From a phage: a DNA stretch of 64,000 nt. The notes under the pieces are model-generated. The model had not been told where the DNA came from. It was given only the letters and a program-made list of their open reading frames with translations, and searched no databases. The stretch lies in assembly GCA_024682255.1 (NCBI GenBank), contig GCA_024682255.1_4716.1; one strand, written 5' to 3'. This document shows positions 11,094 to 62,717 of the stretch, piece after piece (within the stretch, counting starts at the first letter, position 1; every line of letters begins with the position of its first letter). A program made the position numbers and the translations under genes.

Positions 11094-11993
11094 TTATACG
11101 GGAGCGTTAACGTTATAACCGAATACTGCTTTACCGTAGGTGTGAGTACCGTCAGCTAACGACAGCACCAGCACATTGCCGTACGTAGCGTTAACGCCCT
11201 TGTCGGTAGACTCGAGGGTATCACCGTTATAGACAAAGGTAGCTGTTTGCAGATTGGCTTTCAGTTCATTGATGATCTCATCACTTACACCGGTCTGCTC
11301 TTTGATCAGGGTGGTCAGGTTACCTGCCAGGCTTTCATCGATCTTGGTTTCGTTACTGGTAATCGCCTGTAAACCTACGCCGTAGATGCTGAAGTCTAAC
11401 GGATAGGTTAACAGACGCGCTGACGTTTTGGTACCATCGCCTTCATCAACGTAGGTTAAGTTACCCAGGTTGGTAACCTTGATGATGTTAGCCAGATCCA
11501 GCGTGGTGTTATAAACTTTAACTTGAACCGAGCCATACCACGCCAACGAATCTTCTTTGGCTTCCAGGGTGATCGTCTGGATACCATGCTGGTCGAAGGT
11601 AACCGGCGTAGCTAACGTTTCGGCTTTGATGTCTTTCGCTTTATCCAGGAACTTCTCACCGGAAGGCGTGATCATACCGTAGCGTTGAGCTACAAGGTCA
11701 ACCACGTCACCAATAGTGGTGTTCGCATTAACGTTAACACGTACAGCGATTTTCTGGAACCACTTAGCCAGATCCAGACGATGGTAGGTAACATCGCGTT
11801 CATTGAAGTAAGGGGTACCTTCACCTGGGCTAAGCGTTAAAGTTGCTTCTGGAGCAGAAGGATTCTTTTCTTTAAGAACGTATTTAAGGTCGGTGTATTT
11901 GAAGCTGGCACCAGTGTCGGCGTTGAGTTTGTTAATCTCATCAACGATAAGTTGCCAAGGTGTTTTTAAAGTAAGCGATACTTGAGCTGTCAT
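11094..11993 (-). CDS. putative virion structural protein, member of YYDR...LAWxGSV paralog family
   Basis: 299-aa ORF with AGAGG RBS; motifs TYHRLDL, AQRYGM, SLAWYGSVQV shared with 12135..12677, 23050..23955, 24872..25723, 25734..26681; monocistronic with hairpin terminator. Confidence 0.6.
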   Translation of the reverse strand: MTAQVSLTLKTPWQLIVDEINKLNADTGASFKYTDLKYVLKEKNPSAPEATLTLSPGEGTPYFNERDVTYHRLDLAKWFQKIAVRVNVNANTTIGDVVDLVAQRYGMITPSGEKFLDKAKDIKAETLATPVTFDQHGIQTITLEAKEDSLAWYGSVQVKVYNTTLDLANIIKVTNLGNLTYVDEGDGTKTSARLLTYPLDFSIYGVGLQAITSNETKIDESLAGNLTTLIKEQTGVSDEIINELKANLQTATFVYNGDTLESTDKGVNATYGNVLVLSLADGTHTYGKAVFGYNVNAPV

Positions 11994-12134
11994 TTTCTAC
12001 CTCTATGGTTGTTACATCACTCTCAAAAGATGTAAGTGTTTACAGAAATTAATATATTTTATATTAGTGTGAATAGTATGGAGAACGACTCCGAATCTCC
12101 TTTTCGACCATCAAAAATCAGAGGACACATAATC

Positions 12135-12677
12135 ATGGACTTAAACTTTAACAAAGCAGCGAAATCCCTTCTGCTTGATCTTATCAACACCAAAGCAACC
12201 CGCACACTGTCTGAAGAAGAACTGCAGTTCGGTACTCCGGCGACATCTTCCGAACATGGAAAGAACACCGTTATTCAGCTGGACGCTGCGCCTGAAGCAG
12301 CTAACCTGCAGGGTAGTCAGCAGTTCTACTACGATCGTCTGGCTCTGTCCGAAGTTTTCGCTGAAGTAACCGGCGATGTTACTTTCGAACTGCCGCACGG
12401 CACTGACAGCATTAAGGCTTCTGAACTGGTAAGCAAGCTGGTCACCAAATTCGGCCTGGCTTCCCTGACCGGTGAAATCAAAGAAGAAACCTTCCAGCTG
12501 TCTGCAGGTACTGTTGGTCGGGTAACCCTGACTGCGATCGAGGGTGGCCTGGTATATACCGGCACTCTGCAGGTTGCACTGACCTACGCAGCTGCACCGA
12601 AAGACCAACTGGCAACCGTTCTGGCGAATAACGTAGCTGATGGCTTCGTGAAACCGACCGTTAGCGCTGTTGGCTAA
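12135..12677 (+). CDS. putative structural protein, short member of YYDR paralog family
   Basis: Start re-assigned to ATG (MDLNFNK...) with AGAGGA RBS; contains FYYDRLAL, VTKFGL, LVYTGTLQV. Confidence 0.5.
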   Translation: MDLNFNKAAKSLLLDLINTKATRTLSEEELQFGTPATSSEHGKNTVIQLDAAPEAANLQGSQQFYYDRLALSEVFAEVTGDVTFELPHGTDSIKASELVSKLVTKFGLASLTGEIKEETFQLSAGTVGRVTLTAIEGGLVYTGTLQVALTYAAAPKDQLATVLANNVADGFVKPTVSAVG

Positions 12678-21717: not shown

Positions 21718-22998
21718 ATGTATACATTGGTAAAAACTTACGGGTTACCCGTAGGTTCTGGCACGGCCTGGACAGCGCTTGAGGCGGGTGAAAGTGTCCT
21801 GAGTACGTTGTTCTCAACGTATCAAAAACTCAAGATCCAGGTCCATGAAAGCTACGCTGACCAGCAACAAGTTATTGATCTGTACACATTTCAATCCGAG
21901 CTTCAAAACAGCAGTGATACGCTCAATGCGTGGTTGAAAGCGAAATCGGATGCACATACCAACCTTCGAGGACAGCCTGGTGAGCTGTCGATTAAAACCC
22001 ACAAGCTTTATTGTCATGACGCTATTACGGTAGGCTTTCTCCCTAAAGTCGGTAATAGCGGTTATCATCCGAGCAATGCGATCCCTGAGTCGGAACGCAC
22101 TGATATCCTGTTGACGAAAGCGAATACGAATTACGAAAATATCGGCAAACACTGCTTGTTCACCGTAGGCGGTTATGTTCATCCTCACGTCTACGGTAAA
22201 GACGTTGGTGTCTATATCCTGGGTGGGTTCGAGACAGCACAGCGTAGCCAAGAAAACGATATCGGCATGATTGATTTTAGCCGTATCGGGAGTTTGGAAA
22301 TTCATGCTATCACAGAAGAGATGATTGCTGATTCCACGAAGCTCTTGCCGTATAAGGACGAGATGTACTTGCGGTTACCGCGCAAGGTCGCCGAAGATGA
22401 AACCGTTGCGCTGGTGTTCGGGGGATATTTACATCTTCTTGACGATTGTTACACGATCGTTAGCGACACGACAGCAAAAATAAACTGCATTAACATGTTT
22501 CTCTATGAAAGATACTTCCGTTCCCGCAAATACCTTGATCTAACATCTCTTGGTATTCTGTTGAACGAAGAAGACCCACAGTCCGACATTGTTGCCAATC
22601 GTTTATTGTCGGATAAAGCATTAAAAGCGTGGGTGACGCATCCTTGCAGTTTCTGGGTGTATATCAAAGCAACATCGATTCGGGTTACGCAAGAACCTTT
22701 ACCACGAAGTGGTGTACCAGGACAGTATTTCTTAGGTAAGAAACCGGAAGGATTGATTCGGGCCGATCTTGGTGAGTTACCGGCTTACGTGCAGACCTAT
22801 GAAAAACCGTTATGGGTACTTCACTCGCGCTGGGGACTTCGTAAGAACATGTTGTTTGAAAATACGTTGTACAAACATACCCGCGTTAAGCGGCTTAACG
22901 ATACGCCTTATCTTCACCAGGTCTGGTTGGAAACGCATGCGACGTTGCAGACAGTACACAAGCTCGAATTGATCGATTCCAGTCAGAAAAACAAATAA
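21718..22998 (+). CDS. hypothetical protein
   Basis: 426-aa ORF with AAGGGGG RBS; convergent with downstream minus genes; followed by conserved hairpin. Confidence 0.55.
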   Translation: MYTLVKTYGLPVGSGTAWTALEAGESVLSTLFSTYQKLKIQVHESYADQQQVIDLYTFQSELQNSSDTLNAWLKAKSDAHTNLRGQPGELSIKTHKLYCHDAITVGFLPKVGNSGYHPSNAIPESERTDILLTKANTNYENIGKHCLFTVGGYVHPHVYGKDVGVYILGGFETAQRSQENDIGMIDFSRIGSLEIHAITEEMIADSTKLLPYKDEMYLRLPRKVAEDETVALVFGGYLHLLDDCYTIVSDTTAKINCINMFLYERYFRSRKYLDLTSLGILLNEEDPQSDIVANRLLSDKALKAWVTHPCSFWVYIKATSIRVTQEPLPRSGVPGQYFLGKKPEGLIRADLGELPAYVQTYEKPLWVLHSRWGLRKNMLFENTLYKHTRVKRLNDTPYLHQVWLETHATLQTVHKLELIDSSQKNK

Positions 22999-38364: not shown

Positions 38365-38572
38365 CGTCAACCTCCATCTGATTGAAAACTATCACGCATA
38401 ACGCATTTCCCTTTTCTTGTTCTTATCAATCCGACAGCCGACGGTTTCAGCATCGTTCCTAGCGCGAGAACGACCTTACGTGTTGTCTATGCCTTATTCA
38501 TCGCAGGCGTCTGTCACCTAGGTAATGTAAGCGTCAAATTTTTTCTATTCGCAACGATAAACGGCATAGAAA

Positions 38573-38602
38573 CCTCCCCCAACCCTTACGGGCTGAGGGA
38601 GG
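38573..38602 (-). terminator. divergent copy of the conserved hairpin, downstream of the putative capsid gene
   Basis: CCTCCCCCAACCCTTACGGGCTGAGGGAGG; upstream flank GGCATAGAAA, downstream CTGACTTATG; a second small hairpin CCGGATGAATGTCCGG lies between it and the capsid stop. Confidence 0.5.
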
Positions 38603-38701
38603 CTGACTTATGTATCACGGTGCCGGATGAATGTCCGGTGCAATGAAACCATCCGCAACGTTGTCGTCAAGAATATCATCCAACGAAGCAGCTACGGTAG
38701 T

Positions 38702-40924
38702 TCAGTTGGTCTGAACCGGCAGCTTGATGTTTTCAGTGTAGACCTTACGCAGGTTCACAACGTTAATCAGACCCAGCAGCGGGCAGTTGTTAACGAAGCG
38801 GCAGCGCGGCTGAACCATGGTTTCTTTAGAAACCTGACCGTTACGGGTAACCTGAGCAACAGATACCAGTTCCGGTACATACAGGAACATACCGAAGGTC
38901 AGCGGATCCGGAGAACCCTGGATACCACGAGACAGGGTCACGAAGATCTTATCGCGCAGCATGACGTTCGGGTTATCTACAACCACGAAGTTGAAGCTTA
39001 CACCAACGGTACGGAAATCACCATCGGTCTGCAGGAACTGCGGGATGTAGTTGTCAGTTGCTACTACGCAACGCGGTTTCTCATCAGCGTTGGAAGACAG
39101 CAGCTGCAGAGCTGGCTGATAACCAGACTCGGAGTACATGCGGTATGCCATTTCACGAATCACGTTCATGATCGCAGCAGACACTTCAGCACGACGTTCT
39201 GCAGTGGTGGTACCCTGAACAGATTTCTCCAGGTCCAGATTGATTTCTTCGAACCACGGACGGATCAGGTAACGACCGAAACCTTCGATCTGGATGTCGC
39301 CGAACTGACGGAAGCGAGAGGTCGCAACCGCTTTCAGTGCGTCTTTGTAGCTGAACAGTTTCTCAACCATCAGGTTGTCGAAACGTGCGTTAGCAGCTTG
39401 GATCAGAACGTCCAGGTCAGCAGCGTTTTCTTCCCAATCCAGCGGACGAGGAATGGAGAACGGAGCCAGCAGGCCGATTGCGTAACGTTCTTGCTTCATG
39501 TTGAAGTCAAGGTGCTTACCACGCTCACGACGGTTGCTGTTGTTACGGCGGATACGCAGTTCGTAACCAACCAGTTTGAAGCTCAGGTCTTCAGCCAGTT
39601 GTTTGAACTCTTCGCTCTTACGCGGTTGTTCGATGTTGTCCTGATCAACCAGGCGATACAGTTCAGCGTTAGCGCCGTTAACACGCAGACCGGCTTTCTC
39701 TACGTTGGAAGAACCGTAAACTTCGATTGCCAGCTGAGCAGCGGATTTCGCATCGATGATGTCCTGCAGCGCTTCGGCTTTCGCGCCTTTAACGTCAACG
39801 GTGTTCTCATCAACGAAGATGGAGTGGGTGTCGAACGCCAGGGTCATTTTGCGGAAGTCGCCTTCCAGGGATTTCTGGAAACCGTTGGTGATCAGACCAG
39901 ATACGTCGAACGGTACGTAAGAGGTTTTGCTGTGCTTGGTAGATTTGATTTCCACCAGGATTTTGGTCAGCGTGATCTGGGCGTCCAGTGCGTCGGTGTT
40001 GTCGCTGTAACCGTTAGCCAGGATGCTATCGTCTTCAGCAATACCGATCATGTCGATCAGTTTATCAACAGCCAGGTAAGACGTTTTATAAGTTACGCCT
40101 TTAATTTCGATGTCACGCGGAGCAACGATAGTTTTGTCAACGAAGTACTGTGCGTTAGCATCGTCAGCACGATAGATCGGATGCAGATCGGTCACGTCGT
40201 TGGACAGAACGTCGTTGTACATGAACGCATCCAGCAGCGGACGACGTACCCAATCAGCCGGAGTACCGTCAGCGTTACGACGCAGGTGGTTGAACACCAG
40301 CGGACGACGGAAAGATACGTCGTAACCGATCTGGTTCGGAGCCAGAACGATGGTGTTATACAGTTCGTTACCCATGCGGCTCAGACGAGAAGCCTTCACG
40401 TTGAACACAACGGAGTACGGCATCATGTCACGCAGTTCTTTCTGGTCGTAGGACAGCTGAACCAGTTCTTCAGATTCGCAACCGCAGGAATCAGCAGCCA
40501 TCATGACGAAGTTAGAGCTGTCAACTTCACGGCCAGACGGAGTGGTGCTGATGTTCATGGAACGTGCTTGTTTAGCATATTCCACCGGGTTACCATGAGC
40601 CAGCATGATCAGTGCTGCTGCACGAGCCTGCTGTGCGTTCATGGTGAACAGCTGTTCTTCAATACGCTGCTTCTCTTCCGGAGTGGTGGTTTCGAAGCCC
40701 AGCATGGACAGAACCGGTTCTTCGGCTTTACGGATGTCGCTGCTGAAGCTCTTAACATCCATTTCGTTAACCAGTTTGTCCATGGATTTGAAATCAACCT
40801 TAGAAGCAGATTCCATAGACAGGAAGGTGTTCTCCAGACCTTTGTCTGCTGGTTTGCTACCATTAGCGGTCAGGAACTGGCGAGTGGCCGCGACCTGTTG
40901 GCTAAGAAGGGTTTTATCATTCAT
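38702..40924 (-). CDS. putative major capsid protein (jumbo-phage type, ~740 aa)
   Basis: 740-aa ORF with conspicuous high-expression codon usage (CTG, CGT, CCG, GGT, AAC, TTC dominate) unlike neighbours; tandem hairpins downstream; size fits phiKZ-like major capsid proteins; no sequence search possible. Confidence 0.5.
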   Translation of the reverse strand: MNDKTLLSQQVAATRQFLTANGSKPADKGLENTFLSMESASKVDFKSMDKLVNEMDVKSFSSDIRKAEEPVLSMLGFETTTPEEKQRIEEQLFTMNAQQARAAALIMLAHGNPVEYAKQARSMNISTTPSGREVDSSNFVMMAADSCGCESEELVQLSYDQKELRDMMPYSVVFNVKASRLSRMGNELYNTIVLAPNQIGYDVSFRRPLVFNHLRRNADGTPADWVRRPLLDAFMYNDVLSNDVTDLHPIYRADDANAQYFVDKTIVAPRDIEIKGVTYKTSYLAVDKLIDMIGIAEDDSILANGYSDNTDALDAQITLTKILVEIKSTKHSKTSYVPFDVSGLITNGFQKSLEGDFRKMTLAFDTHSIFVDENTVDVKGAKAEALQDIIDAKSAAQLAIEVYGSSNVEKAGLRVNGANAELYRLVDQDNIEQPRKSEEFKQLAEDLSFKLVGYELRIRRNNSNRRERGKHLDFNMKQERYAIGLLAPFSIPRPLDWEENAADLDVLIQAANARFDNLMVEKLFSYKDALKAVATSRFRQFGDIQIEGFGRYLIRPWFEEINLDLEKSVQGTTTAERRAEVSAAIMNVIREMAYRMYSESGYQPALQLLSSNADEKPRCVVATDNYIPQFLQTDGDFRTVGVSFNFVVVDNPNVMLRDKIFVTLSRGIQGSPDPLTFGMFLYVPELVSVAQVTRNGQVSKETMVQPRCRFVNNCPLLGLINVVNLRKVYTENIKLPVQTN

Positions 40925-41073
40925 TGAAAGTATCCTTTACAGAATTAACTTATATAAGTCGGTCGATAGACCATAGCGTACACGCGTGCATGCGCCACTA
41001 TAGTATCAGTAAACACTTACCGTTATTGAGGTCGTGATACAACACTAAAAATGCCGCATAACTTTTCCCTACG

Positions 41074-41694
41074 TCACAAACGACGCAGGCGATAATGGAT
41101 GGAACGATTGGTGCAATATGAACGGAACAGCGGCAATTGCGCAACTTCCGCAAGACTCATATTAATTCGCAGGTGTTCAATAACGGCGCTGTAGTTATCA
41201 GCAATACGATCGCTCAATAACTCTTCTGCCAATAAAGGAAGACAATCGACAACAATCGCGATCACATCCTCATTAACATAACGCACCCGAACACTCAACG
41301 GACGTTTGTCTGGGCTGTAAGTTGGATCCGCCAAACGACGTTCAATATCACGCGGATAGCTCGTCAGTAAATGGTAATAACCATTGTCATAACGATTGAT
41401 GTACTCACACAGCACATCAACATTCTTCTCTGGCGGCAAACCTGTTTCGTCATAGTGATACGCAAACATACCACCAAGCAGGTTGTTAAGATGAACCGCA
41501 GGGTTCGCTTGTTCGTGTTCTTTCGTGATGAAGAAAGGCACGTTCTGGGCTGCGAAATAAAAACCTACATCATTGGGCGATAGTATGCCGAAAAGACTTT
41601 TAGGATCCAATAACACCTGTAAGTCGTCACGCGCATTTCGAATAATCGCGTGTTCTACCCAATTCGGAACGACGAGATATCGGAGTTCCTTCAT
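41074..41694 (-). CDS. hypothetical protein
   Basis: 206-aa ORF with AGAGG RBS; divergent from 41734..43344. Confidence 0.5.
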   Translation of the reverse strand: MKELRYLVVPNWVEHAIIRNARDDLQVLLDPKSLFGILSPNDVGFYFAAQNVPFFITKEHEQANPAVHLNNLLGGMFAYHYDETGLPPEKNVDVLCEYINRYDNGYYHLLTSYPRDIERRLADPTYSPDKRPLSVRVRYVNEDVIAIVVDCLPLLAEELLSDRIADNYSAVIEHLRINMSLAEVAQLPLFRSYCTNRSIHYRLRRL

Positions 41695-44793: not shown

Positions 44794-44869
44794 CGTATTT
44801 TACCTTTCTATGTTAGGTGGATTGCGGATAGAAGAATCAATGCATAAACTAATTTAAGTTTGTTAAGGT

Positions 44870-45772
44870 TTACTTAGTCTTCGAGTTACAAGGACTGACA
44901 TGTTGTTGTACTCGTTGAATTGTATCGTAGTACGGGTTAGATTGGTTGAACATGTTGTTGTGTGGATGATAGCCGTATGGTGCATTTTGCCTTGTTGATG
45001 AGAAACCTTGTTGAGAAGGACGATTTGAATTAACCGCGAGTACGTAGTAAACCAAATTTTGACGGTCGAACGTTCCTTCGTTTTTGAAGGTGTCGGCGTA
45101 GGCTTTTACCGCTGGAGCGAGCCTATCACCATCAGCGGTAATAATTGTACCGTCTGGGTAAACTTCACGAACGACGCACCATGTTCCGATAAGAACGTCT
45201 TTGGGTGGCGTATTGCCGTATCCGGTTGTAACGGTAAGGTAAGTATCGAACCCTTCAGAACAACAAGGATGACGATAGATAGGTCCTGTCATTTCCGTTC
45301 TATCGGTATCATCGCATTTCTCTATTGAGAACGATGATGTGTCGGTTTTGAAATTGTCAAATTCTTTCTTTAAGTCGATTACAGGTTCTTTCGTATAGTA
45401 CTTCTTGATTGCTTTGACGTAAAGATCAGGAACGGTTGTCAGCATTCCGTTATACCTGATTCTCAGGTTTTCGAGTAATCCAAAGATGCTCGCGCATGCC
45501 TGTTCGCGAGGTTTTGTAAGATAAGAGATCCCCCCAGGAACGCTGGGATCTTTGAGAAAGAAGATTGCGTTATTGTCGTTGTGTGACACATTAAAGAAAA
45601 CGATTGATTCGATATATACGGAGCATAGGCTATCGTTGGCGTCGTCAGATAACACCCAGATGCACTCATCGGTCGTCTTGTTTAAAAGTTCTGTTTTGTC
45701 CACCAAACGTTGTTTCATTGCGAGGAAATGTGCCTGTTGTTCAGCGGATAATTCACGATAAATAGTGGTCAT
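44870..45772 (-). CDS. hypothetical protein (paralog of 45858..46632)
   Basis: 300 aa with AAGGAG RBS; shared segment PIYRHPCCSEGFDTYLTVTTG...REVYPDGTIIT vs PIYIHPECHTTYDRYLTITGG...REIYPDGRIVT. Confidence 0.5.
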   Translation of the reverse strand: MTTIYRELSAEQQAHFLAMKQRLVDKTELLNKTTDECIWVLSDDANDSLCSVYIESIVFFNVSHNDNNAIFFLKDPSVPGGISYLTKPREQACASIFGLLENLRIRYNGMLTTVPDLYVKAIKKYYTKEPVIDLKKEFDNFKTDTSSFSIEKCDDTDRTEMTGPIYRHPCCSEGFDTYLTVTTGYGNTPPKDVLIGTWCVVREVYPDGTIITADGDRLAPAVKAYADTFKNEGTFDRQNLVYYVLAVNSNRPSQQGFSSTRQNAPYGYHPHNNMFNQSNPYYDTIQRVQQHVSPCNSKTK

Positions 45773-45857
45773 GCTCGGCTCCTTGATTACGATAAGGATG
45801 ATTGTGGTTTTGTGATGCTGGTAGGGCTCCTTTGTTTAGGGCCCTACCAATATTGGG

Positions 45858-46632
45858 TTACTCAGGATCGGCGTAGAAATGATGGGGATAGCCGGAGTAC
45901 GATCCTGCGTTACCAGTTATGAATTCTTTCTGGGAATCGACGACGAGTGCGTAGAACTGTCGGGAATTTGTTAGCGTTGAGAAATAAGCGGAAAGGACTT
46001 TTTCATTCAACGCATCGCAAGGTAGACAGGTGCGCCCGCAAAACGTAACGATACGGCCGTCAGGATAGATCTCACGAATCATTCTCCACTCACCGATATC
46101 CACTGGTGATGGCGCTGCTACACCACCTGTTATCGTTAAGTAACGATCGTACGTGGTATGGCATTCAGGATGAATATAGATCGGCTTGTTCGTTTCGACA
46201 GGTTCCGAAGTATCTCGACGACTAAGGAGTTCAACAACTTCAAGATAAATCGTTGGTAGATCGCGGAGAATACCGGTGTTACGACGTTTCTTTGTGATTC
46301 GCGGACGAATCTCGTTAAGAGCGTATTCGAGCTTACGTTCAGCTTCGTACGCATCGAGTTTTATTAGGTGGCCCGGTTCATCGGAATGATCCTGAGTTAT
46401 GTAAACGAAATACGTGTTGTCTTTTGCAGCGCGAAAGATTCGAGCGACCTTAAATGTTTCTACAGTGCGATAACCAAGGCGCGATTGATTTTCCACAGGA
46501 GAAAATATCCAATGTCGTCCTTCGTCCGCCCCAACAATTTCGTTGAAACTATCCGTTTGTTCTGGGACCTGGTAGTCAGCCATTAATGTATCAAGAGCGT
46601 CGTCAGCCAGTTTGGTGTAAATATCTGTCATG
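45858..46632 (-). CDS. hypothetical protein (paralog of 44870..45772)
   Basis: Start re-assigned to ATG (MTDIYTKL) with GAGGATAC RBS; the ORF-track N-terminus would read through the conserved hairpin. Confidence 0.5.
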
Positions 46633-46735
46633 TTTGTATCCTCGGTTGTTAAGAGAAATTTACAATGATAACAGTAACCGTTGTTATCACCTAGGTAATG
46701 TAGTCGCGAAATAAACTGGATTAGACAGCATAGAA

Positions 46736-46767: not shown

Positions 46768-46773
46768 AATATA

Positions 46774-47406
46774 TCACCAATGATCGAAGGAACCAGGAGT
46801 GTTACGAACGATCTCAACTTGGAAGGTTATTGGTGTTGATGGCAATGAAACATATTCGCGTTGCGATAGCGGGACGTTGTCTTCTCGCTCATCGATGCGA
46901 GCGGAACCTGTCAGAAATTGGAACATAGCGACTTGAAGCTCATCGGTGAAACGGAGGTACTCACCGATGTGTGGTGTTGCATCATATCGAATAAGTACGT
47001 TGCCAAACCGTCGTGCGATATTTGGAGTATCTGTGAACGAAACAGGGAAATCCAAAGTCATTCCCATCGTTTCACCCGGCTTCATTTTCCGAATCGACGC
47101 AATTGGCACGTCGAAGATATTCCATTCTTCTTTCATCGTGTCTGGAAACACACCGCGATACAAGATGGTCTTTTGATGACGATGAACGGGTTGTAAACGG
47201 TCAACCAATATTTTCAAAGGTTTAAGTTCTTCAGCCAACTCATAATCTGCTTGGATGTTCCACTTTGCCGCAAGTTCCATTAGGTTGGGATACGCGCTAT
47301 ATTTATTGACGATAGTCCAGTTAACATTACGCAAATCAATAGGAAGGAATTTGATAATTTCCTTGTTGAATATCCATTGGTTTAATTTCTTAATCTCCGA
47401 AAGCAT
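46774..47406 (-). CDS. hypothetical protein
   Basis: Start re-assigned to the first ATG after the upstream stop (MLSEIKK); ORF-track start overlapped the upstream gene by ~170 nt; weak RBS. Confidence 0.4.
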   Translation of the reverse strand: MLSEIKKLNQWIFNKEIIKFLPIDLRNVNWTIVNKYSAYPNLMELAAKWNIQADYELAEELKPLKILVDRLQPVHRHQKTILYRGVFPDTMKEEWNIFDVPIASIRKMKPGETMGMTLDFPVSFTDTPNIARRFGNVLIRYDATPHIGEYLRFTDELQVAMFQFLTGSARIDEREDNVPLSQREYVSLPSTPITFQVEIVRNTPGSFDHW

Positions 47407-47422
47407 GACGTACTCACTACAG

Positions 47423-48790
47423 CTAAACGGTTGGACGAACGGTGTTGTCTTTTTCTGGTGCAAGCCATAACGTGACCGTACCATGGCATGTCCACTGTGG
47501 TTCACGTACAGAAGAACCTGCCATCGTAACAGCACAATCGGTACGCATGATAACCCCGTATGCTTCGCAGAGATTGTTATCCTGCATCCACACAACTTTA
47601 GCAGGCATGCCGGGATACAACAAATCCATGTTTGCGTATTCCCACACCAACTGCATTGTTCTACCGCGTAATCCAGCAGTATTACTTAATTCACGCCATC
47701 GGTTATCGGTTACGCGTCCCATCCCTTTCGCCACCTTCACGTTATCGCTACGTTCTTCAGTTACGTACTCGCTAACGTTTACGGTACGACTGATTATCGT
47801 ATCACCCCCTTTTGATAATGTCATTCCCTGACTCATCTGACTTGCCGAAACAAAACGCCCGCCCGCATTACCTAACAACGAAGCCGCGTTATTGATGTCG
47901 CTTACCGACGCCCCTCTCGTACAGGCAATTTCCACGTATTTGTCACGATTGATCCAGGTCTTGTCCATGCCCGGAAACATATCGGCAGGATAGTTGTAAA
48001 AGATAGCCGTGCGCCGACCGTCAGAGAAACGGGTTTCGTCATAGAGAGGATAAATATACAGATACGGAGATTGGTAATAACAACCGACGTCCGCTGAATA
48101 AATACCGACCTGGTTCTGGATTTTATCTACGAGATCCATTGCGTTGGTACCATGCGGAAGAATAAGCAACTTGAACAGGTTGTCGTTATTCGGTGCAACA
48201 ATATCCACACCCTGCATTTTGAATCCGGTGTCGGCTTCAACCGCAGAAAGTATCTTGCTGAATTCGAGTCGTAACACATCCAGAACTTTCGACCCAGTAT
48301 AGTTTTCACCGGTTTCTGATTGCATGAAGCTTTCAAGAACAGGATCGAACAGTTGAAATTGAAGATCGACCATTTGTTCGTAGTCTTTCTTCGAAGAATC
48401 GGTTGCGGTACGTTCGTCGTTAGCAGACATACGACTGTCTACGGTTGTTAAACAAACCGCTCGGTAGACGTAAGCTTGCGCAGCATCGTCTACGGTTTGG
48501 CGTTGTCCACGCATCAGACTGTACGCCTGCACGATGATGCGCATTTTAAGTTGTTGTTGGTACGGTAGAATGTATTTTCCGTAACTGCCTGGCGGGAACT
48601 TTACAGAGATATAAAGTTCATCTCCTGCGTTACGTTCATAGTCTCGATACGTGTGGACTTGAGTCACTAAAGGAACAGACACCGTCATTGACGGCGTGAT
48701 TAATTCCGCGGTGACTTTATACGCAACAGCAACTGCTTCCTGCGCAAATGTACCGATATACCGTCCTAACGGCGTCTGTTTGTAATCCAT
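47423..48790 (-). CDS. hypothetical virion-type protein
   Basis: 455-aa ORF in long co-directional structural block. Confidence 0.55.
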   Translation of the reverse strand: MDYKQTPLGRYIGTFAQEAVAVAYKVTAELITPSMTVSVPLVTQVHTYRDYERNAGDELYISVKFPPGSYGKYILPYQQQLKMRIIVQAYSLMRGQRQTVDDAAQAYVYRAVCLTTVDSRMSANDERTATDSSKKDYEQMVDLQFQLFDPVLESFMQSETGENYTGSKVLDVLRLEFSKILSAVEADTGFKMQGVDIVAPNNDNLFKLLILPHGTNAMDLVDKIQNQVGIYSADVGCYYQSPYLYIYPLYDETRFSDGRRTAIFYNYPADMFPGMDKTWINRDKYVEIACTRGASVSDINNAASLLGNAGGRFVSASQMSQGMTLSKGGDTIISRTVNVSEYVTEERSDNVKVAKGMGRVTDNRWRELSNTAGLRGRTMQLVWEYANMDLLYPGMPAKVVWMQDNNLCEAYGVIMRTDCAVTMAGSSVREPQWTCHGTVTLWLAPEKDNTVRPTV

Positions 48791-52639: not shown

Positions 52640-52691
52640 CGCAGATTCCTGTTTGAAAGATAAGATATCACATGATGGTCGACAGCATAAA

Positions 52692-52711
52692 GCCCACCCC
52701 GAAGGGCGGGC
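52692..52711 (-). terminator. GC-rich hairpin downstream of 52728..56114
   Basis: GCCCACCCCGAAGGGCGGGC; on minus strand followed by TTTATGCTGTC. Confidence 0.45.
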
Positions 52712-52727
52712 TGTTTATGCTTACGGA

Positions 52728-55700
52728 TTACTTGTAGGCACCGCAATGGGCTTTGATGAGGAAAAGCACTGCTTGCATCGGTTTATTGAACTGTTGCCAT
52801 AACGTCAATGCAGGATGGAACAACCAATCTTCCAGGCCGAGAACAATACCGTAGTTAACGACATTATTAACGTCGTTCTCAATGTTGAGTTCGCTGTCCA
52901 GGAATTTATCGATTGAACGCAGGGTCTGCATGGCATTGTCAGCAATAAGCCAAGCTTCATGCGCTTCACGAGCCGCACGCAGCACTGCTTCCAGTTCGCT
53001 GATAGTAGCTACCGGTAATTCCTCACTGGTAAGGTCGTCAGAAACCGTAAACTGGCGATTGATACCGGTGTAGATCCACTGCATCAGTTTCGCTGCTTCC
53101 TCGTTCGGGTTGTTACGCGTTGTCGCATAAGTCGCGCTCACCTTCACGATGTGCGTTTCACCAAGATACGCTTTGGAACCAACGCCTTTACGATCGCTGT
53201 TTTTCCACGGTTGTACGGTAGCGACCATGAGCTTATCCCATTTCTGAATAGGAATACGCTTCAGACCAACAACCGATCCAGCGGATGTTTCGGACTGGTT
53301 GCTCTTCCGCACTTCGCTGAGTTCACGATCGATAGCAACGATTAATTCGCGTGTCATGTTACCAAGCATTTTGATTTCACCCAACGCAGCGATGAGCTTC
53401 TTCACGTCGGTAACAGGTTCACCACCGATGGTAAGATGACGGATGAAACGTTTCAGAATAATCCGTTCTGCTGCTGGGTTACCACGACGCGCTTTAGCCA
53501 ATGCTTGCTGCGTTTCGGCGAACAGCTTATCCCATGGAGCCGTAGCAGCAGTATAGTAACGATGATTGGTTTCGATCCAATTACCGATACGGTTGACCGC
53601 ACTCTTAACGGTATCCATGAATCCTTCCATCGCAATTTCGGTAGCTTCGACGTTACCCTGGAAGTTATCAGGACCGATCTCACGTGCCGCTACCAGAATA
53701 CCTTCCACAGCACTCACCGCATGGCGACCGATAGCCAGATTTCGCTGTGCTTCTTCAGCACGCTCAACGAATTCCACCACCGCAGGATCATCAACGATTT
53801 CCGCCTCAGCAACAACACGTGTACCGGCATCGCCTTCCAGCGTCTCGATCGTTACAACAGGATCGTTTTCACCAGCAACATCCTGGTACTCTTCCTGTTT
53901 AAGATCACCGTTATCTGCCGCAGCGATAGCGTTCATTATGCGGATGGTGACCTCACCAAGTTCTTGCGAAACGAATCCATAAACGGTGCAAGCAGTCGTT
54001 GCGAAGTTCATCAATGTGCGCGTACGCTGCGTGATGTAACGTGCGCCGGATTCGTTTTCCAGTTTATCGAGATCCCGGATTAACTGCTCGGCTGTTTCTT
54101 GAAGCTGTGTTACCGCCTTCAAGAGATCTTCGTCGAACAGTTTCTTCGATGCATCAACTAACATATCAGCATTGACGTTGGATGGTACCGTATCGCCTTG
54201 CTGTTTCATCTCGCTCAGCTCATCGCGGAACTTACGGATACCTTCTAAAGCGTCGTCAACGGAATATCCGAATGCCTTAACGCCCGCCATTCCGAGAGCT
54301 GCTTTCATATCGCCAGGATGTTGAACTTGCTCGCCTTCCTTGCTGTTCTTTAACTCATCGAAATATTGACGTGATGCGTCCGCAATACGCTTGCTGTCTT
54401 TTACTGCGTTAACGATCTTATCAACCGATTTCGAATCGTTTGCAAGTAACGTGTCAAGCTTGTTCCATGCAACATCAACTTTCTTCCCGTTGTTAGCCTC
54501 GCCCGGCGGTGGAAGCAGCTTCATCACTGGTGTTGTGCGTTGTTCTTTGGTGAGCTTACCAGCTTTCTCTTCGATTTTCTTTTTATTAACACCGAAAAGT
54601 TTTCTTAGGCGCGCCACGATGGCTTTTAAGAACTTCACAACCGCTTCGTAAACCGATTTCAGGATCTGTTTAAAGCGACCGGGTTTCTTGTCACCGTCTT
54701 CCAGATTAAGATCGCTGTTCAGTGCGACATCAAGCTGTTTGTACGATTCCATGATGTATTCGTCTTTGATTTCAGGACGAATCTCGAAGCTTTCCATCGG
54801 ACCTTCAGCCGGACGGAATTCCATTTTCAGTTCGCCTTGCAGGGTAGGGTCGACAATGGCGATCGCTTCACCCTGACCATCAGCGTTAAAGCGTTCAGCG
54901 TAACGAGTACGGCGAACAATAACACTCTTATCCCCATCAAGACGACGTACCACCATGGTACCAGGAATGTATGGTTGTTCTGTTTCAATGACGGTTACAT
55001 CTGCTTCACCTTCGCCGAGAATAACAGATGCACGCTGTTCAACAACAGGAACATCTAATACACCACGGGCTTCCAGCTCTTGATGAATTTCGAACGACTC
55101 TTGTTTCAGATCTTCATCTTCTTCGTTTTCGTCGTCTTCATCATCGTCACCTTTGGTGTTTTCATCACCTTTGGTGGCTGTGGTGTCGGTAGCATCAGCA
55201 TCAGCGTCGGTGTTGGTAGCGTCTTCGGTCGCAGGTTCGGTGGTGTTGTCCTCCGTGGACGACCCGTCAGTGTTATCGACGTCAACATCACCTTGCAGTT
55301 CTGTTTCCTGAGCAACTGCTTCGGCTTTCTGCTCGCCGGTATTACCGTCATTAGCGTCGACAACAGGTTGTTCGTCAGCGACGGTATCTTCAACCTTTTC
55401 TACTTTCTCCACGACACGTTTAATCACGGTGACTTTGATGGGTTCTTCCGTTGTTTTGGTTTCTGGCGTCACCTCGGCTGCCGCAGCCGCTGTTTCAGCA
55501 ACAGGTTCTGCTTTTTCCGGTTCGACGACATTACCTTTAACGCCTTCGGTGGTTTCTGCAGGTTGCGCTGCCTGTTCGATTTGTGCCGGATTGGTTGGAT
55601 CGATGGCGTTAGCTGCATCCTGAATCTTGTTCTTCAGGTTGTCGCGGTCGGCGTTAACGGTCGGGTCATTGGTCACTTTCGGTGCCGGTGTTTCGGTCGG

Positions 55701-56114
55701 TGCGTTTGCCGGATACGGGTTCTTCGGCTCTTCGCCAGGTGCGGTCGGTACCGCGATCAGAACGAACGGTTGAACATCGTTACCGTCTTCCATGGTCACG
55801 CCGCCGTTGCTCGGTGTGAAACGAATTCGCAAGCTACCATCAATAGGACGGGTCACAATAACAGCACGTACGACATCTTCACCGTTTTCATCCGTGCTAC
55901 GAATCACACGAACAGCGTCATCAACAGTAGCCCCTTCCTCGAGCGTATCTGATTCGATCGTCGCTTCGATGCTGTCTGGCCGTGCCGCTGTAGGTAATGC
56001 GATCACTTGCTCTTCTTTATCAGTAGAAAGCGTTGCTTTGACTTCGATAGGTGTATCGCCGCTTTCCAGGTTAAGATGCGACTTACGCATCAGATCAGCT
56101 AACGATTTTTTCAT
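52728..56114 (-). CDS. very large virion-type protein with extended acidic low-complexity region (candidate internal head or ejection protein)
   Basis: 1128 aa with AAGAGGA RBS; residues ~130-330 are E/T/D/A/P-rich (e.g. TEDNTTEPATEDATNTDADADATDTTATKGDENTKGDDDEDDENEEDEDLKQ). Confidence 0.6.
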   Translation of the reverse strand: MKKSLADLMRKSHLNLESGDTPIEVKATLSTDKEEQVIALPTAARPDSIEATIESDTLEEGATVDDAVRVIRSTDENGEDVVRAVIVTRPIDGSLRIRFTPSNGGVTMEDGNDVQPFVLIAVPTAPGEEPKNPYPANAPTETPAPKVTNDPTVNADRDNLKNKIQDAANAIDPTNPAQIEQAAQPAETTEGVKGNVVEPEKAEPVAETAAAAAEVTPETKTTEEPIKVTVIKRVVEKVEKVEDTVADEQPVVDANDGNTGEQKAEAVAQETELQGDVDVDNTDGSSTEDNTTEPATEDATNTDADADATDTTATKGDENTKGDDDEDDENEEDEDLKQESFEIHQELEARGVLDVPVVEQRASVILGEGEADVTVIETEQPYIPGTMVVRRLDGDKSVIVRRTRYAERFNADGQGEAIAIVDPTLQGELKMEFRPAEGPMESFEIRPEIKDEYIMESYKQLDVALNSDLNLEDGDKKPGRFKQILKSVYEAVVKFLKAIVARLRKLFGVNKKKIEEKAGKLTKEQRTTPVMKLLPPPGEANNGKKVDVAWNKLDTLLANDSKSVDKIVNAVKDSKRIADASRQYFDELKNSKEGEQVQHPGDMKAALGMAGVKAFGYSVDDALEGIRKFRDELSEMKQQGDTVPSNVNADMLVDASKKLFDEDLLKAVTQLQETAEQLIRDLDKLENESGARYITQRTRTLMNFATTACTVYGFVSQELGEVTIRIMNAIAAADNGDLKQEEYQDVAGENDPVVTIETLEGDAGTRVVAEAEIVDDPAVVEFVERAEEAQRNLAIGRHAVSAVEGILVAAREIGPDNFQGNVEATEIAMEGFMDTVKSAVNRIGNWIETNHRYYTAATAPWDKLFAETQQALAKARRGNPAAERIILKRFIRHLTIGGEPVTDVKKLIAALGEIKMLGNMTRELIVAIDRELSEVRKSNQSETSAGSVVGLKRIPIQKWDKLMVATVQPWKNSDRKGVGSKAYLGETHIVKVSATYATTRNNPNEEAAKLMQWIYTGINRQFTVSDDLTSEELPVATISELEAVLRAAREAHEAWLIADNAMQTLRSIDKFLDSELNIENDVNNVVNYGIVLGLEDWLFHPALTLWQQFNKPMQAVLFLIKAHCGAYK

Positions 56115-61388: not shown

Positions 61389-62717
61389 TTACTGCTGTGC
61401 TGCGTCAGCCGGTTTCTCAGCCGCCTGGCCGCCGTACTCTTTCAGCATTTTAGCAACACCATCCAGGACAGCGTTACCTGCCTGAACACCGTATTTCATC
61501 AGACCAGTCTGCGGGTTCACGTAGCAGGAACGTGCGTCTTTCAGTGCAGACAGTACAGCTTGAACACGCTGTTTTTCCTGAGCGGAAACTTCGCCTTTCT
61601 TAGACAGATCGGCTTCCATATCGTCACCGAATTTAACAGCGTCTTTGAAGCCCTGGGATTTCTTACCGATGTTGCCTTTCAGCGCCAGCAGTTTGTCAGC
61701 CAGTACTTCAACACCGCTAACCGCAGCGGCCAGCTGATTCGGAGATAGAACTTTAGCCTCTTGCTGCAGCGCAGTAATGGCGTTAGCACCGCGTTCCCAG
61801 GTTACTTTCCCATCTGTGGTTTTGAATCCCCAATCGTTCGGACCTTTAACGTCAGCGATTGCTGGTGCGTTCAGTTTATCAGTGTATTCGGTGTGGGACT
61901 TAGATTTGACTAACCCAACGAATTTATCAGCACGATCGTCAGCAGCCTTCATTGCTTTCTCGAAGGTGTCAGTGATTTTAGTCGCCGCGGTAACCAGATC
62001 AAGGCCGCCGATATAACCTGTAGCGCTACCCAGTAAAACTTTATCGTTCTTCGGAGTACCTTTACGTTTGGCGATCATTTCTTTCAGTTTAGCAGCACGT
62101 GCTTTCAGTTTGGTCGCGCCGTCGAAGATACGATCCATGAACTTCACGAAGGTTTCCCAGGAAGTTTTCAGGAAGTTCTTGATGGTTGCCCACAGTTTCT
62201 GCCACCATTTTTGTTCTTCCAGGAAGATCATGTTGGTCGCATCGTAACGGGAAGCGGAACCACCGAAGCTTTCGAAGGACGGCATGGTTTCCGGCATTTT
62301 GAAACCGATAGTACCACACAGACGTTTCAGATTACGCATGTGTTCCTGAGCGGTCTGTGCAGACATACCGCCGTCTTTCAGGTAGCTTTCGGTTGCAACA
62401 ACGGTTTCCGTCAGTTCGTCCATGGCTTCATCCATGGCTTCTGCGGTTTCGTCGTCTTTTGCAATTTCGATAACAACAGCATCAACCTGCTCGATATCAC
62501 CACGAACTTCGATAGCCAGTTCGGTTTCAGCTGCGGTATCTTCAGCGATTTCAGCACGTTCGGTCAGCTCAGCCACAACGGTTTCATCCGCTGGTGCAGC
62601 ATCAGCTGCCGGTTCTGCTTCAACGGTTGCCGCTGCATCCGGATCGATCTCAGCAGCCAGTTGAACCAGCTGTGCGTTAGATGGATTTGCGACAAGACGA
62701 TCAAAAATAGAAGGCAT
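61389..62717 (-). CDS. member 5 of tandem paralog array (most divergent, acidic N-terminal region)
   Basis: 442 aa; acidic A/E/D-rich N-terminal third, same overall architecture as members 1-4; high-expression-like codon usage. Confidence 0.55.
   Translation of the reverse strand: MPSIFDRLVANPSNAQLVQLAAEIDPDAAATVEAEPAADAAPADETVVAELTERAEIAEDTAAETELAIEVRGDIEQVDAVVIEIAKDDETAEAMDEAMDELTETVVATESYLKDGGMSAQTAQEHMRNLKRLCGTIGFKMPETMPSFESFGGSASRYDATNMIFLEEQKWWQKLWATIKNFLKTSWETFVKFMDRIFDGATKLKARAAKLKEMIAKRKGTPKNDKVLLGSATGYIGGLDLVTAATKITDTFEKAMKAADDRADKFVGLVKSKSHTEYTDKLNAPAIADVKGPNDWGFKTTDGKVTWERGANAITALQQEAKVLSPNQLAAAVSGVEVLADKLLALKGNIGKKSQGFKDAVKFGDDMEADLSKKGEVSAQEKQRVQAVLSALKDARSCYVNPQTGLMKYGVQAGNAVLDGVAKMLKEYGGQAAEKPADAAQQ

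Follow-up and report, generated by a model that had tools for sequence, protein, structure and literature searches.

The minus-strand gene at 38702..40924 uses a much narrower set of codons than the genes around it, and the question that this raises is what the gene encodes, what has shaped its codons, and how it would be transcribed. The preliminary description of this DNA picked the gene as the best capsid candidate, compared its codons with those of highly expressed enterobacterial genes, noted a long open frame on the opposite strand, and drew attention to hairpins downstream and to a shared motif upstream. The codon island is real, and its underlying biology is already known. Taken as a whole, the locus can be read with high confidence as a capsid transcription unit that combines a major capsid protein (MCP) gene, translational codon selection, an antisense by-product and a terminator of the phiKZ type.

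Identity of the gene and its relatives

The window (the whole stretch of 64,000 nucleotides that was analysed) belongs to a close relative of Escherichia phage Goslar, with about 95–99% nucleotide identity overall and 98.8% in the capsid region. The reading frame is present as described, and encodes 740 residues. Its product matches the Pfam family PhiKZ_MCP (PF25620) over profile positions 2–635 of 635, with E=1.6e-217 and 724 bits where the curated cut-off is 27 bits, and it also matches PHROG 3231, 'major head protein' (E=9e-164). Chains deposited in the PDB as 'Major capsid protein' (11bt and others) are approximately 99.5% identical to it, with residues 1–740 aligned and a score of 1637 bits. 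Of the four visible mismatches to these chains, three coincide exactly with residues at which the window and Goslar differ; at the fourth site, residue 74, the two also differ, but with another residue. Comparison with the phiKZ-like capsid proteins, proposed in the preliminary description as a check, gives a match to phiKZ gp120 (8y6v) with E=2e-55. The choice of this gene as the capsid candidate was thus a good one.

One PDB chain contains residues 158–740 only, which is compatible with removal of a propeptide. Two candidate S/A/G-X-E sites, G148-C-E150 and S151-E-E153, precede residue 158; we take S/A/G-X-E to be the motif of the phiKZ gp175 protease, and name these putative cleavage sites on that basis. 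The phiKZ gp120 protein is itself trimmed.

The order of genes at the locus is also conserved. A divergent DnaB-like helicase, a small gene, the MCP, a long gap and a gp123-like RNA polymerase subunit follow one another in SPN3US, Eowyn, SPLA10 and one phiKZ-like phage. The cryo-EM paper on Goslar identifies gp41 as the MCP of a T=27 capsid, present in 1,615 copies per virion, and superposes gp41 on 8Y6V. On the evidence of these matches, 38702..40924 encodes the HK97-type major capsid protein and is orthologous to gp41 of Goslar and gp120 of phiKZ. The phage that carries it is a Goslar-like chimallivirus, a jumbo phage that forms a nucleus, and its presumed host is E. coli, the host of Goslar.

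The closest known relative is gp41 of Goslar itself (vB_EcoM_Goslar, YP_009820726), which has the same length, the same flanking genes, and an identical 149-nt leader and terminator, and differs at 4 amino acids and 30 nucleotides, with 24 of the changes synonymous. The two genomes are about 3–5% diverged overall, and the present one carries segments absent from Goslar. Three reading frames absent from Goslar gave no Pfam matches, nor did the homologs of gp39, gp40 and gp42. The product resembles phiKZ gp120 (PhiKZ_MCP; PDB 8Y6V, with the HK97 fold of T=27 jumbo phages) in its full-length profile match and its gene neighbourhood, and differs from it in having only about 25% identity and in being adapted in its codons to E. 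coli and not Pseudomonas. As for relatives of intermediate distance, a search of INPHARED for MCPs of more than 35% identity returned Goslar only, and IMG/VR contributed Goslar and two further loci that are 99% identical. Counts of conservation given below rest on four Goslar-like genomes, a number that does not permit deep footprinting.

Codon usage and the antisense frame

The codon set is narrow for a number of amino acids. Leucine is encoded by CTG in 64 of 67 cases, arginine by CGT in 36 of 46, proline by CCG in 25 of 28 and glycine by GGT in 26 of 34; the corresponding figures are 43/46 for AAC (Asn), 35/35 for TTC (Phe) and 38/48 for GAA (Glu). The effective number of codons (Nc) is 30.1, compared to 42.8–61 in all other plausible genes of the window except 61389..62717 (32.0). 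The codon adaptation index (CAI), calculated with E. coli ribosomal-protein and elongation-factor genes as reference and weights from E. coli K-12 (the host being that of Goslar), is 0.80; the median for the window is 0.37 (sd 0.106), and tufA and fusA reach 0.84 and 0.79. When the same protein is back-translated with the codon usage of the neighbouring genes, the CAI is 0.395 ± 0.017, which places the real gene at z = 24.5. The relative synonymous codon usage (RSCU) correlates with that of the E. coli reference genes at 0.964, compared to 0.65 for the neighbours. The likeness to highly expressed enterobacterial genes that had been proposed from the codons is therefore borne out.

The gene also differs from its surroundings in composition, with a GC content of 0.514 and a GC3 of 0.59, against 0.44–0.49 and about 0.45–0.50 in the neighbours. 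This is what would be expected of a horizontally acquired gene that has kept the composition of its donor. We regard this explanation as extremely improbable. The preferences differ from one codon family to another and match E. coli high-expression genes (r=0.96), the synteny of the MCP is conserved across genera, and the gene is the part of the window least diverged from Goslar. In addition, high-copy genes at other, unlinked places of the genome have the bias too, and distant orthologs of the MCP show the same island independently.

As a second alternative, transcription-associated mutation or strand asymmetry could have produced the bias. The gene is presumably one of the most transcribed, and its third positions are depleted in A (0.14 against 0.22) and enriched in C (0.34 against 0.25). 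However, one mutational pressure cannot drive third bases in opposite directions from one codon family to the next, and here the preferred codons end in T (GGT, CGT, GCT, GTT, TCT), in C (TTC, AAC, ATC), in G (CTG, CCG, CAG) or in A (GAA, AAA) according to the family. It would also leave the near-perfect fit to the optimal codons of the host unexplained. The distribution along the gene points the same way: codons 2–15 are unadapted (CAI 0.38), while in a sliding analysis each later window of 50 codons has a CAI of at least 0.74, a pattern typical of selection on initiation and elongation. A mutational origin is thus very unlikely, and the codon bias is the result of translational selection on a phage that has no tRNA genes of its own.

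Comparison with other genes supports this conclusion. In Goslar, gp41 ranks first of 237 reading frames by CAI (0.80), followed by gp58, gp214, gp23 and chimallin, and CAI rises with the virion copy numbers that have been published (Spearman 0.87, p=0.001, n=10). The two further genes singled out in the preliminary description as highly expressed are homologous to gp22 and gp58 of Goslar, for which published virion mass spectrometry of Goslar gives ~580 and ~2,150 copies. Among the PF12699 paralogs gp53–gp58, a strong codon bias is seen in the 2,150-copy gp58 only. The relation is imperfect, as the tail sheath and tube reach merely 0.53–0.55. The MCP orthologs of SPN3US, Eowyn and SPLA10, which are 25–31% identical, have the highest or second highest CAI of their own loci (0.77, 0.73 and 0.78), and in the phiKZ-like phage no neighbouring gene has a lower Nc or a higher GC3 than the MCP. 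The high abundance of the capsid protein in the present phage is transferred from Goslar, and the codon adaptation is consistent with it.

On the basis of these observations, we propose the following explanation. Capsid protein is required in very large amounts, as indicated by the 1,615 copies per Goslar virion. Its mRNA presumably depends on host ribosomes and on the host tRNA pool, since no tRNA genes were found in the window and none are present in the feature tables of Goslar. Such a demand, together with such a reliance, has therefore generated selection for fast and cheap translation, which has pushed nearly all codons past the first 15 or so to the preferences of highly expressed E. 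coli genes. A bias of phage head and tail genes towards host-preferred codons has been described (Lucks et al., 2008; PMC2266997). Compared to that description, the present case is unusually sharp, with a CAI equal to that of host elongation factors, and it occurs in a phage whose nucleus separates transcription from translation.

The antisense frame at 38627..40927 (plus strand) does exist, is free of stops over 766 codons, and is in codon register with the capsid gene. Under the codon usage of the neighbours, the probability that this frame would be open is only about 4e-11, and this improbability is what could be said for a real overlapping gene that has shaped the codon choice of the capsid gene. 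The absence of TTA, CTA and TCA codons (0 of each in the capsid gene) nevertheless follows directly from the optimal codons of E. coli: the antisense frame has no stops because the preferred codons exclude these three. In Goslar, codon 130 of gp41 is TCA, which closes the frame. Moreover, the differences between the window and Goslar that comprise 24 synonymous and 4 non-synonymous changes in the sense frame would produce 26 amino-acid changes in the antisense frame. The same artefact is seen in SPN3US and SPLA10, whose MCP genes, with proteins only about 25% identical, also have open antisense frames of 767 residues, and Pfam and PHROG searches with the 766-residue translation returned no significant match. 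The probability of an overlapping gene is, in our view, next to nil. The antisense frame is a meaningless by-product of the codon bias, as the preliminary description had supposed.

Hairpins downstream of the capsid gene

The gene had been described as followed by tandem terminator hairpins. One strong hairpin is indeed present on the coding (minus) strand at 38561..38602, consisting of the stem-loop CCUCCCUCAGCCC-GUAA-GGGUUGGGGGAGG (38573–38602) and the tail UUUCUAUGCCGU (38561–38572). It has a stem of ~14 bp, a GUAA loop and a predicted energy of −29.7 kcal/mol (z = −6), and is invariant in the four Goslar-like genomes. The record for Goslar carries no terminator annotation at this position. 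Two other hairpins on the same strand are weak, and the idea of a tandem pair does not hold. The first, CCGGA-CAUUCA-UCCGG at 38623..38638 in the 3'UTR, has a 5-bp stem and an energy of −7.2 kcal/mol; it is conserved, and is too weak to be called a terminator. The second, at 38648..38701 directly after the stop codon, is long and imperfect (−17.1 kcal/mol), with three positions variable among the four genomes, one of which breaks a pair.

A generic scan for intrinsic terminators between 38300 and 41200 found none, and passed over the strong hairpin because its tail is UUUCUAUG and not a run of U. A generic sigma-70 promoter scan of the same region gave only one weak promoter-like site, inside the gene. 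Such scans are uninformative here, since these phages are transcribed by polymerases of their own and have terminator tails poor in U. Rfam gave no matches, either in the region at E<=1 or in the whole window at gathering thresholds.

The strong hairpin belongs to a family. The window contains 8 copies, each of them between genes and on the coding strand; the homologs of gp22 and gp58 are both directly followed by one. Goslar has ~19, of which almost all lie on the coding strand as well. Pairing is retained, through compensatory changes, in the outer-stem variants CCCTCTCCC/GGGAGAGGG, CCTTCCTCC/GGAGGAAGG and CATCCTCCC/GGGAGGATG. For phiKZ, the mapping of 3' ends has yielded the terminator motif BCCYCCCCHWWDGGGRRGGBYTTATKYYGT (Putzeys et al., 2024; PMC10914365). 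The capsid hairpin, in the form GGGAGGTTTCTATGCCGT, fits the 3' half of this motif with 2 mismatches, and that half has 6 matches in the window against 2.3 expected, all in intergenic gaps. TATGC[CT]G occurs 13 times in the sense direction and 3 times in antisense, with 2.4 expected; a comparison of TATG with permuted 4-mers after hairpins was not discriminating under a loose hairpin rule. A suggestion that the GGGTTGGGRGAGG hairpin subfamily marks highly expressed genes only was rejected, as copies also follow genes of low CAI.

The family shares with the phiKZ motif (PMC10914365) the CCYCCC/GGGRRGG stem-loop, the (Y)TTATG-YYGT tail, the position after genes, on their coding strand, and the presence of many copies per genome. 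It differs in that the stem of most Goslar-type copies is longer and has two tiers, separated by a 2x2 U.U internal loop (CCCTCYYCC-TT-CCC...GGG-TT-GGRRGAGGG); the capsid copy is the fully paired variant. The tail, TTCTATGCCGT, is a further difference. From its sequence, the hairpin at 38573–38602 fits a conserved family of phiKZ-type intrinsic terminators, and capsid transcription would thus end at this strong stem-loop, approximately 135 nt past the stop codon.

A terminator followed by an early promoter is found downstream of the MCP in phiKZ also, and the same arrangement of hairpin, TTTATGTTGT and TATATTAC follows the MCP of the phiKZ-like phage. Here a phiKZ-type early promoter box (for the virion RNA polymerase), TACATTACCTAGGTGA, lies at 38514..38529 on the minus strand, with TTTGACGCT ahead of it. 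The core of phiKZ-group early promoters is TATATTAC (consensus table in PMC7058600); the present copy has C for T at core position 3. The longer sequence TTTGACGCTTACATTACCTAGGTGA at 38514–38538 contains a TATATTAC-type core with an upstream TTT-R-rich element and a downstream GTG element, and TTTGACGCT-TACATTAC-CTAG-GTGA fits the 201phi2-1 consensus TTTRARR_BTATATTACDWHDGTG. TATATTAC is the most enriched class of 8-mers in Goslar upstream regions (24-fold), with 12 copies, all of them intergenic, on the coding strand and 24–204 nt upstream of genes that include chimallin and an RNA polymerase subunit. Judged by its motif and position, the box serves the next operon (the homologs of gp40 and of phiKZ gp123) and not the capsid gene; lying ~30 nt beyond the terminator, it would drive that operon. 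The gp123 protein of phiKZ is a subunit of the non-virion RNA polymerase.

The leader, and what the locus means

The intergenic region upstream of the capsid gene (40925..41073, minus strand), which contains promoter and leader, is 149 nt long and is 100% identical to that of Goslar. It has 1 variable column among the four genomes, compared to 3.8 per 100 nt in the coding sequence of the gene; given the low local divergence of 1.1–1.4%, this conservation is merely marginally significant. A Shine-Dalgarno sequence, AAGGA, is read at 40933..40937 on the minus strand, 8 nt before the ATG, and forms the core of the string TGTAAAGGA noted previously. 

The preliminary description pointed to a motif upstream of the gene that is partly shared with the other two highly expressed genes. 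The strings do exist, and one could suppose that TATATAAG...TTAATTCTGTAAAGGA is a promoter shared by the most highly expressed late genes: TGTAAAGGA occurs at −17 of both genes of highest CAI (the gp41 and gp58 homologs), TTCTGTAAA is also found upstream of the gp22 homolog, and the whole leader is conserved. However, Goslar has 8 occurrences of TGTAAAGG where ~7 would be expected, and those at −17 of gp41 and gp58 are made up of the Shine-Dalgarno sequence AAGGA and 4 further bases. No second gene has TATATAAG upstream of it, and TTCTGTAAA lies at −54 near gp22, in a different context, with a TTAATT part that differs between the window and Goslar. The known promoter classes of chimalliviruses look otherwise, with TATATTAC in early and TATG in late promoters. 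A shared promoter is therefore unlikely, and the motif largely reduces to a ribosome-binding site.

Better candidates for the capsid promoter are two TATG elements in the leader. In phiKZ the late promoter is TATG, with G at +1, which is necessary but not sufficient. The first candidate for a late (non-virion RNA polymerase) promoter or start element, ACGCTATGG, is at 40972..40975 on the minus strand, with a predicted +1 G at 40972, and shares GCTATG with p119L of phiKZ (TTGCTATGTAG; compare TTGCTATGT). The second putative element (GTTATGCGGCA) is at 41057..41060 on the same strand, 13 nt past the stop codon of the upstream gene. They stand at −51 and −136 respectively, and as TATG is a mere 4-mer, the matches cannot be decisive. 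Capsid transcription would most likely start at one or both of them. We infer the transcript ends and the expression level in this particular phage, as a search of the literature found no transcriptome of a Goslar-like phage.

It is conceivable, though doubtful, that the invariant TATGCYGT tail of the Goslar-type terminators also provides the non-virion RNA polymerase with a TATG start element. The hairpin-TATG units, including that downstream of the capsid gene, would then be 'stop-and-restart' insulators between late transcription units, and the context within the conserved 149-nt leader would make its own TATG elements exceptionally strong.

The locus provides a clean positive control, in that codon usage alone picked out the capsid gene and the genes of two very high-copy virion proteins in a jumbo phage. 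CAI can thus rank protein demand in chimalliviruses; gp214, gp23 and chimallin are further Goslar genes that stand out by it. Long antisense frames over strongly codon-biased genes should not be annotated as genes. Finally, the terminator and early-promoter grammar of phiKZ extends to the chimalliviruses of E. coli, in which most of these elements are unannotated, and this helps to delimit transcription units for the engineering of Goslar-like phages.

Identity of the capsid gene and its Goslar-like setting

ORF 38702..40924 (minus strand) encodes a protein of 740 residues, which the preliminary description had proposed as the capsid protein. It matches PF25620 of Pfam (PhiKZ major capsid protein gp120) with 724 bits, the entire profile being covered, and PHROG 3231 (major head protein), and its Goslar ortholog is labelled gp41, major head protein, in the RefSeq record. 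Solved 740-residue chains named Major capsid protein align with it end to end, and a 583-residue PDB chain corresponding to residues 158–740 also matches. Three of the four displayed mismatches to the PDB chains are exactly the differences between the window and Goslar; the fourth is residue 74, where the PDB chains carry another residue than Goslar. phiKZ gp120 (8y6v) is matched at E=2e-55. The gene order, namely a divergent DnaB-like helicase, a small gene, the major capsid protein (MCP) gene, a long gap, a gene and a phiKZ gp123 homolog, is kept in SPN3US, Eowyn, SPLA10 and a phiKZ-like phage. The capsid reading is thus correct, and it is already established for the sister phage Goslar, where, according to a cryo-EM preprint, the MCP is gp41, present in 1,615 copies in a T=27 capsid and superimposable on phiKZ gp120.

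Escherichia phage vB_EcoM_Goslar is a chimallivirus, a nucleus-forming jumbo phage infecting E. coli. It has 98.8% nucleotide identity to 38400-41300, and in the INPHARED collection no other phage matches this region at the DNA level. Over the whole window the identity is ~89–97% per aligned block and several segments are unaligned, which marks the window as a Goslar-like genome of its own. Two further Goslar-like contigs from IMG/VR also differ from it.

The capsid region is the part least diverged from Goslar (1.1–1.4%). It contrasts with segments that are unaligned or strongly diverged (688-1257, 9731-10074, 16117-18166 inside ORF 15796-18390, and 54001-56000), which are mosaic hot spots within large virion genes conserved elsewhere; at 54–56 kb, inside the gp53 homolog, the divergence reaches an unusually high 11%. 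Goslar also lacks ~2.4 kb of the window (44847-46626 and 46773-47423) and has the small gp047 in that place. The segment holds three minus-strand ORFs of 236–300 residues (44870-45772, 45858-46631 and 46774-47484), none with a match in Pfam, is bounded by a terminator/early-promoter cassette, and is possibly an accessory (moron-like) insertion. A further stretch of 927 nt (10167-11093) contains no ORF of at least 120 residues and is likewise unannotated in the corresponding Goslar interval. It is bordered by a terminator hairpin (~11061) and an early promoter box (10286-10301), and nothing in it was matched by Rfam.

Codon usage and protein demand

The capsid gene was noted earlier for a narrow codon set like that of highly expressed enterobacterial genes, and this codon island is real and highly significant. 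Leucine is encoded by CTG in 64 of 67 cases, phenylalanine by TTC (35/35), asparagine by AAC (43/46) and proline by CCG (25/28), with only CGT and CGC for arginine and only GGT and GGC for glycine. The breadth of codon usage (Nc) is 30.1, followed by 32.0 for 61389..62717, all remaining plausible genes of the window lying at 42.8–61. Codon adaptation (CAI) was calculated with weights taken from E. coli MG1655 (29 genes for ribosomal proteins and elongation factors); these weights correlate at 0.975 with the Sharp–Li table. The capsid gene has a CAI of 0.80, at the level of host fusA (0.79) and near tufA (0.84), compared to a window median of 0.37. The same protein back-translated with its neighbours' codon frequencies gives 0.395 +/- 0.017 (z = 24.5), and the correlation of RSCU with the E. 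coli high-expression set is 0.964, against 0.65 for the neighbours.

A simple compositional or mutational cause is excluded, since each codon family has its own preferred third base: Gly, Arg, Ala, Val and Ser favour T; Phe, Asn and Ile favour C; Leu, Pro and Gln favour G; and Glu and Lys favour A. In 50-codon windows past codon 15 the CAI never falls below 0.74. Codons 2–15 are unadapted (CAI 0.38; AAT GAT AAA ACC CTT CTT AGC CAA ...), which would fit selection to keep the initiation region A/T-rich and free of structure.

That the bias stems from translational selection is supported in four ways. When the 237 ORFs of the assembled Goslar genome are ranked by CAI, gp41 comes first, and gp58, gp214, gp23 and chimallin, the protein of the nuclear shell, come next in that order. 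By published label-free mass spectrometry, a Goslar virion contains ~2,150 copies of gp58, ~2,140 of gp23, ~580 of gp22, ~330 of gp53 and 50–140 each of gp54–57 and gp60, and these copy numbers correlate with CAI (Spearman 0.87, p=0.001). In the window, the homologs of gp58 (a PF12699 internal head protein; 61389-62717, minus strand), gp23 (12078-12677, plus strand) and gp22 (11094-11993, minus strand) have CAI values of 0.73, 0.62 and 0.54. The gp58 and gp22 homologs are the two other genes that had been flagged as highly expressed, as their virion copies in Goslar bear out. The PF12699 paralogs gp53–gp58 share one fold and one gene cluster, and the bias is strong in the dominant gp58 alone; they are a natural control for demand-linked codon bias. 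MCP orthologs of 25–31% identity have CAI values of 0.77 (SPN3US), 0.73 (Eowyn) and 0.78 (SPLA10), ranking first or second in their own loci, and around the MCP gene of a phiKZ-like phage no other gene has a lower Nc or a higher GC3. A search for tRNA genes found none in the window, and the Goslar feature tables examined list none. A bias towards host-preferred codons is established for phage head and tail genes (Lucks et al. 2008, PMC2266997), and host-adapted codon usage in structural genes is already described as a general phenomenon.

The long plus-strand ORF opposite the capsid gene (38627..40927) had been put down to this codon usage, and rightly so. The two share a codon register, so that stops in the antisense frame can arise only from TTA, CTA or TCA; the frame is open because the capsid gene contains none of these. 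If synonymous codons were used as in the neighbours, such an absence would have a probability of ~4e-11. The alternative, that the ORF is a real gene, is rejected on several grounds: codon 130 in Goslar is TCA, which places a stop in the antisense frame; in the sense frame, 24 of the codon changes between the window and Goslar (30 substitutions) are synonymous and 4 are not, while the antisense frame shows 26 amino-acid changes; the antisense frames of SPN3US and SPLA10 are also open for 767 residues, with unrelated proteins in that frame; and Pfam and PHROG profile searches gave no significant match. The ORF is an artefact.

Predicted terminators and promoters around the capsid gene

Past the capsid stop codon there is a gap of 337 nt, the first 166 nt of which fold more stably than shuffled sequences (z = -4.7). 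Of the tandem terminator hairpins originally proposed here, one stands: only CCUCCCUCAGCCC-GUAA-GGGUUGGGGGAGG at 38573-38602 (-29.7 kcal/mol), followed by the tail UUUCUAUGCCGU, is convincing as a predicted terminator. The second does not, the hairpin at 38623-38638 being weak (5 bp) and the imperfect one at 38648-38701 varying among four Goslar-like genomes, with one change breaking a pair. A generic terminator scan called no hairpin downstream of the capsid gene, because the tail is U-poor.

The strong hairpin appears to belong to a phiKZ-type terminator family with many copies. Three copies of the 22-mer GGGTTGGGRGAGGNTTCTATGC are present in the window (0 expected), and a BLAST search with a 76-nt copy found 11 matches in Goslar and 0 in other phages. 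A structure-aware listing gives eight copies in the window (near 11061, 23022, 32124, 43385, 38585, 46749, 58642 and 61348) and ~19 in Goslar, most of the latter carrying no terminator annotation in the record. All eight are intergenic and on the minus strand, which is the coding strand, and the gp22 and gp58 homologs are each directly followed by one. A typical copy is two-tiered, CCCTCYYCC-TT-CCC-loop-GGG-TT-GGRRGAGGG, usually with CATAT upstream and TTATG downstream, and compensatory changes preserve pairing among the outer-stem variants. A simpler hairpin lies at 52682-52710 (minus strand). The family fits the conserved phiKZ terminator motif obtained from mapped 3' ends, 5'-BCCYCCCCHWWDGGGRRGGBYTTATKYYGT-3' (PMC10914365), whose 3' half has six matches in the window where 2.3 are expected, each of them in an intergenic gap and in the orientation of the gene upstream. 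Strong tetraloop hairpins likewise follow the MCP genes of SPN3US, Eowyn, SPLA10 and a phiKZ-like phage.

About 30 nt past the terminator tail, at 38514-38538, is the element TTTGACGCT-TACATTAC-CTAGGTGA, a predicted early promoter for the virion RNA polymerase, of the kind listed for phiKZ, 201phi2-1, EL, OBP and N1M2 (PMC7058600). It goes with the next operon (the gp40 homolog and a gp123-like subunit of the non-virion polymerase) rather than with the capsid gene. The identical 16-mer recurs at 46687-46702 (minus strand, TACATTACCTAGGTGA), ~30 nt past a terminator hairpin, forming the same terminator–promoter cassette, and a further box is found at 10286-10301 (minus strand, TATATTACCTTCATGA). 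In Goslar upstream regions no 8-mers are more enriched than words of the TATATTAC type, and all 12 approximate 16-mer copies in Goslar are intergenic, on the coding strand and 24–204 nt upstream of genes, among them the genes for chimallin and for a subunit of RNA polymerase. In the phiKZ-like phage the MCP gene is likewise followed by a hairpin, TTTATGTTGT and TCTATATTACAG, in this order.

The 149-nt intergenic region upstream of the capsid gene is identical in Goslar, and has one variable column among the four Goslar-like genomes, the number per 100 nt being 3.8 in the coding sequence and 6.2 in the 3' gap. This suggests constraint, though local divergence is low. The upstream motif reportedly shared with other highly expressed genes finds little support, and is mostly ribosome-binding site. 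No other gene has TATATAAG upstream; TGTAAAGG is no more common in the genome than chance predicts and, lying at -15 to -17 at gp41, gp58 and gp29, is there the Shine–Dalgarno AAGGA plus four bases; and the TTCTGTAAA copy at gp22 is at -54 in another context. Better promoter candidates would be two minus-strand TATG elements, at 40975-40972 (ACGCTATGG) and 41060-41057. In phiKZ the defining element of a late promoter is TATG, its G being +1, and the best studied of these promoters, p119L, reads TTGCTATGTAG and lies just upstream of the capsid operon; three promoters precede the MCP genes of phiKZ and 201phi2-1.

In Goslar upstream regions TATGC[CT]G occurs 13 times in sense and 3 in antisense (2.4 expected), nearly always directly past a hairpin. 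We consider it rather unlikely that the invariant TATG of the terminator tails doubles as a late start site. Earlier work on Goslar or phiKZ has already described the gene, its structure and copy number, and the grammar of terminators and promoters. A T-tract-(A)TGCCGCCACTTT follows the MCP terminator in both Eowyn (~21920-21950) and SPLA10 (~22190-22215), two phages of different genera. Since it is similar to the tails of Goslar (TATGCCGT) and phiKZ (TTATKYYGT), the post-hairpin tail is conserved across chimallivirus genera.
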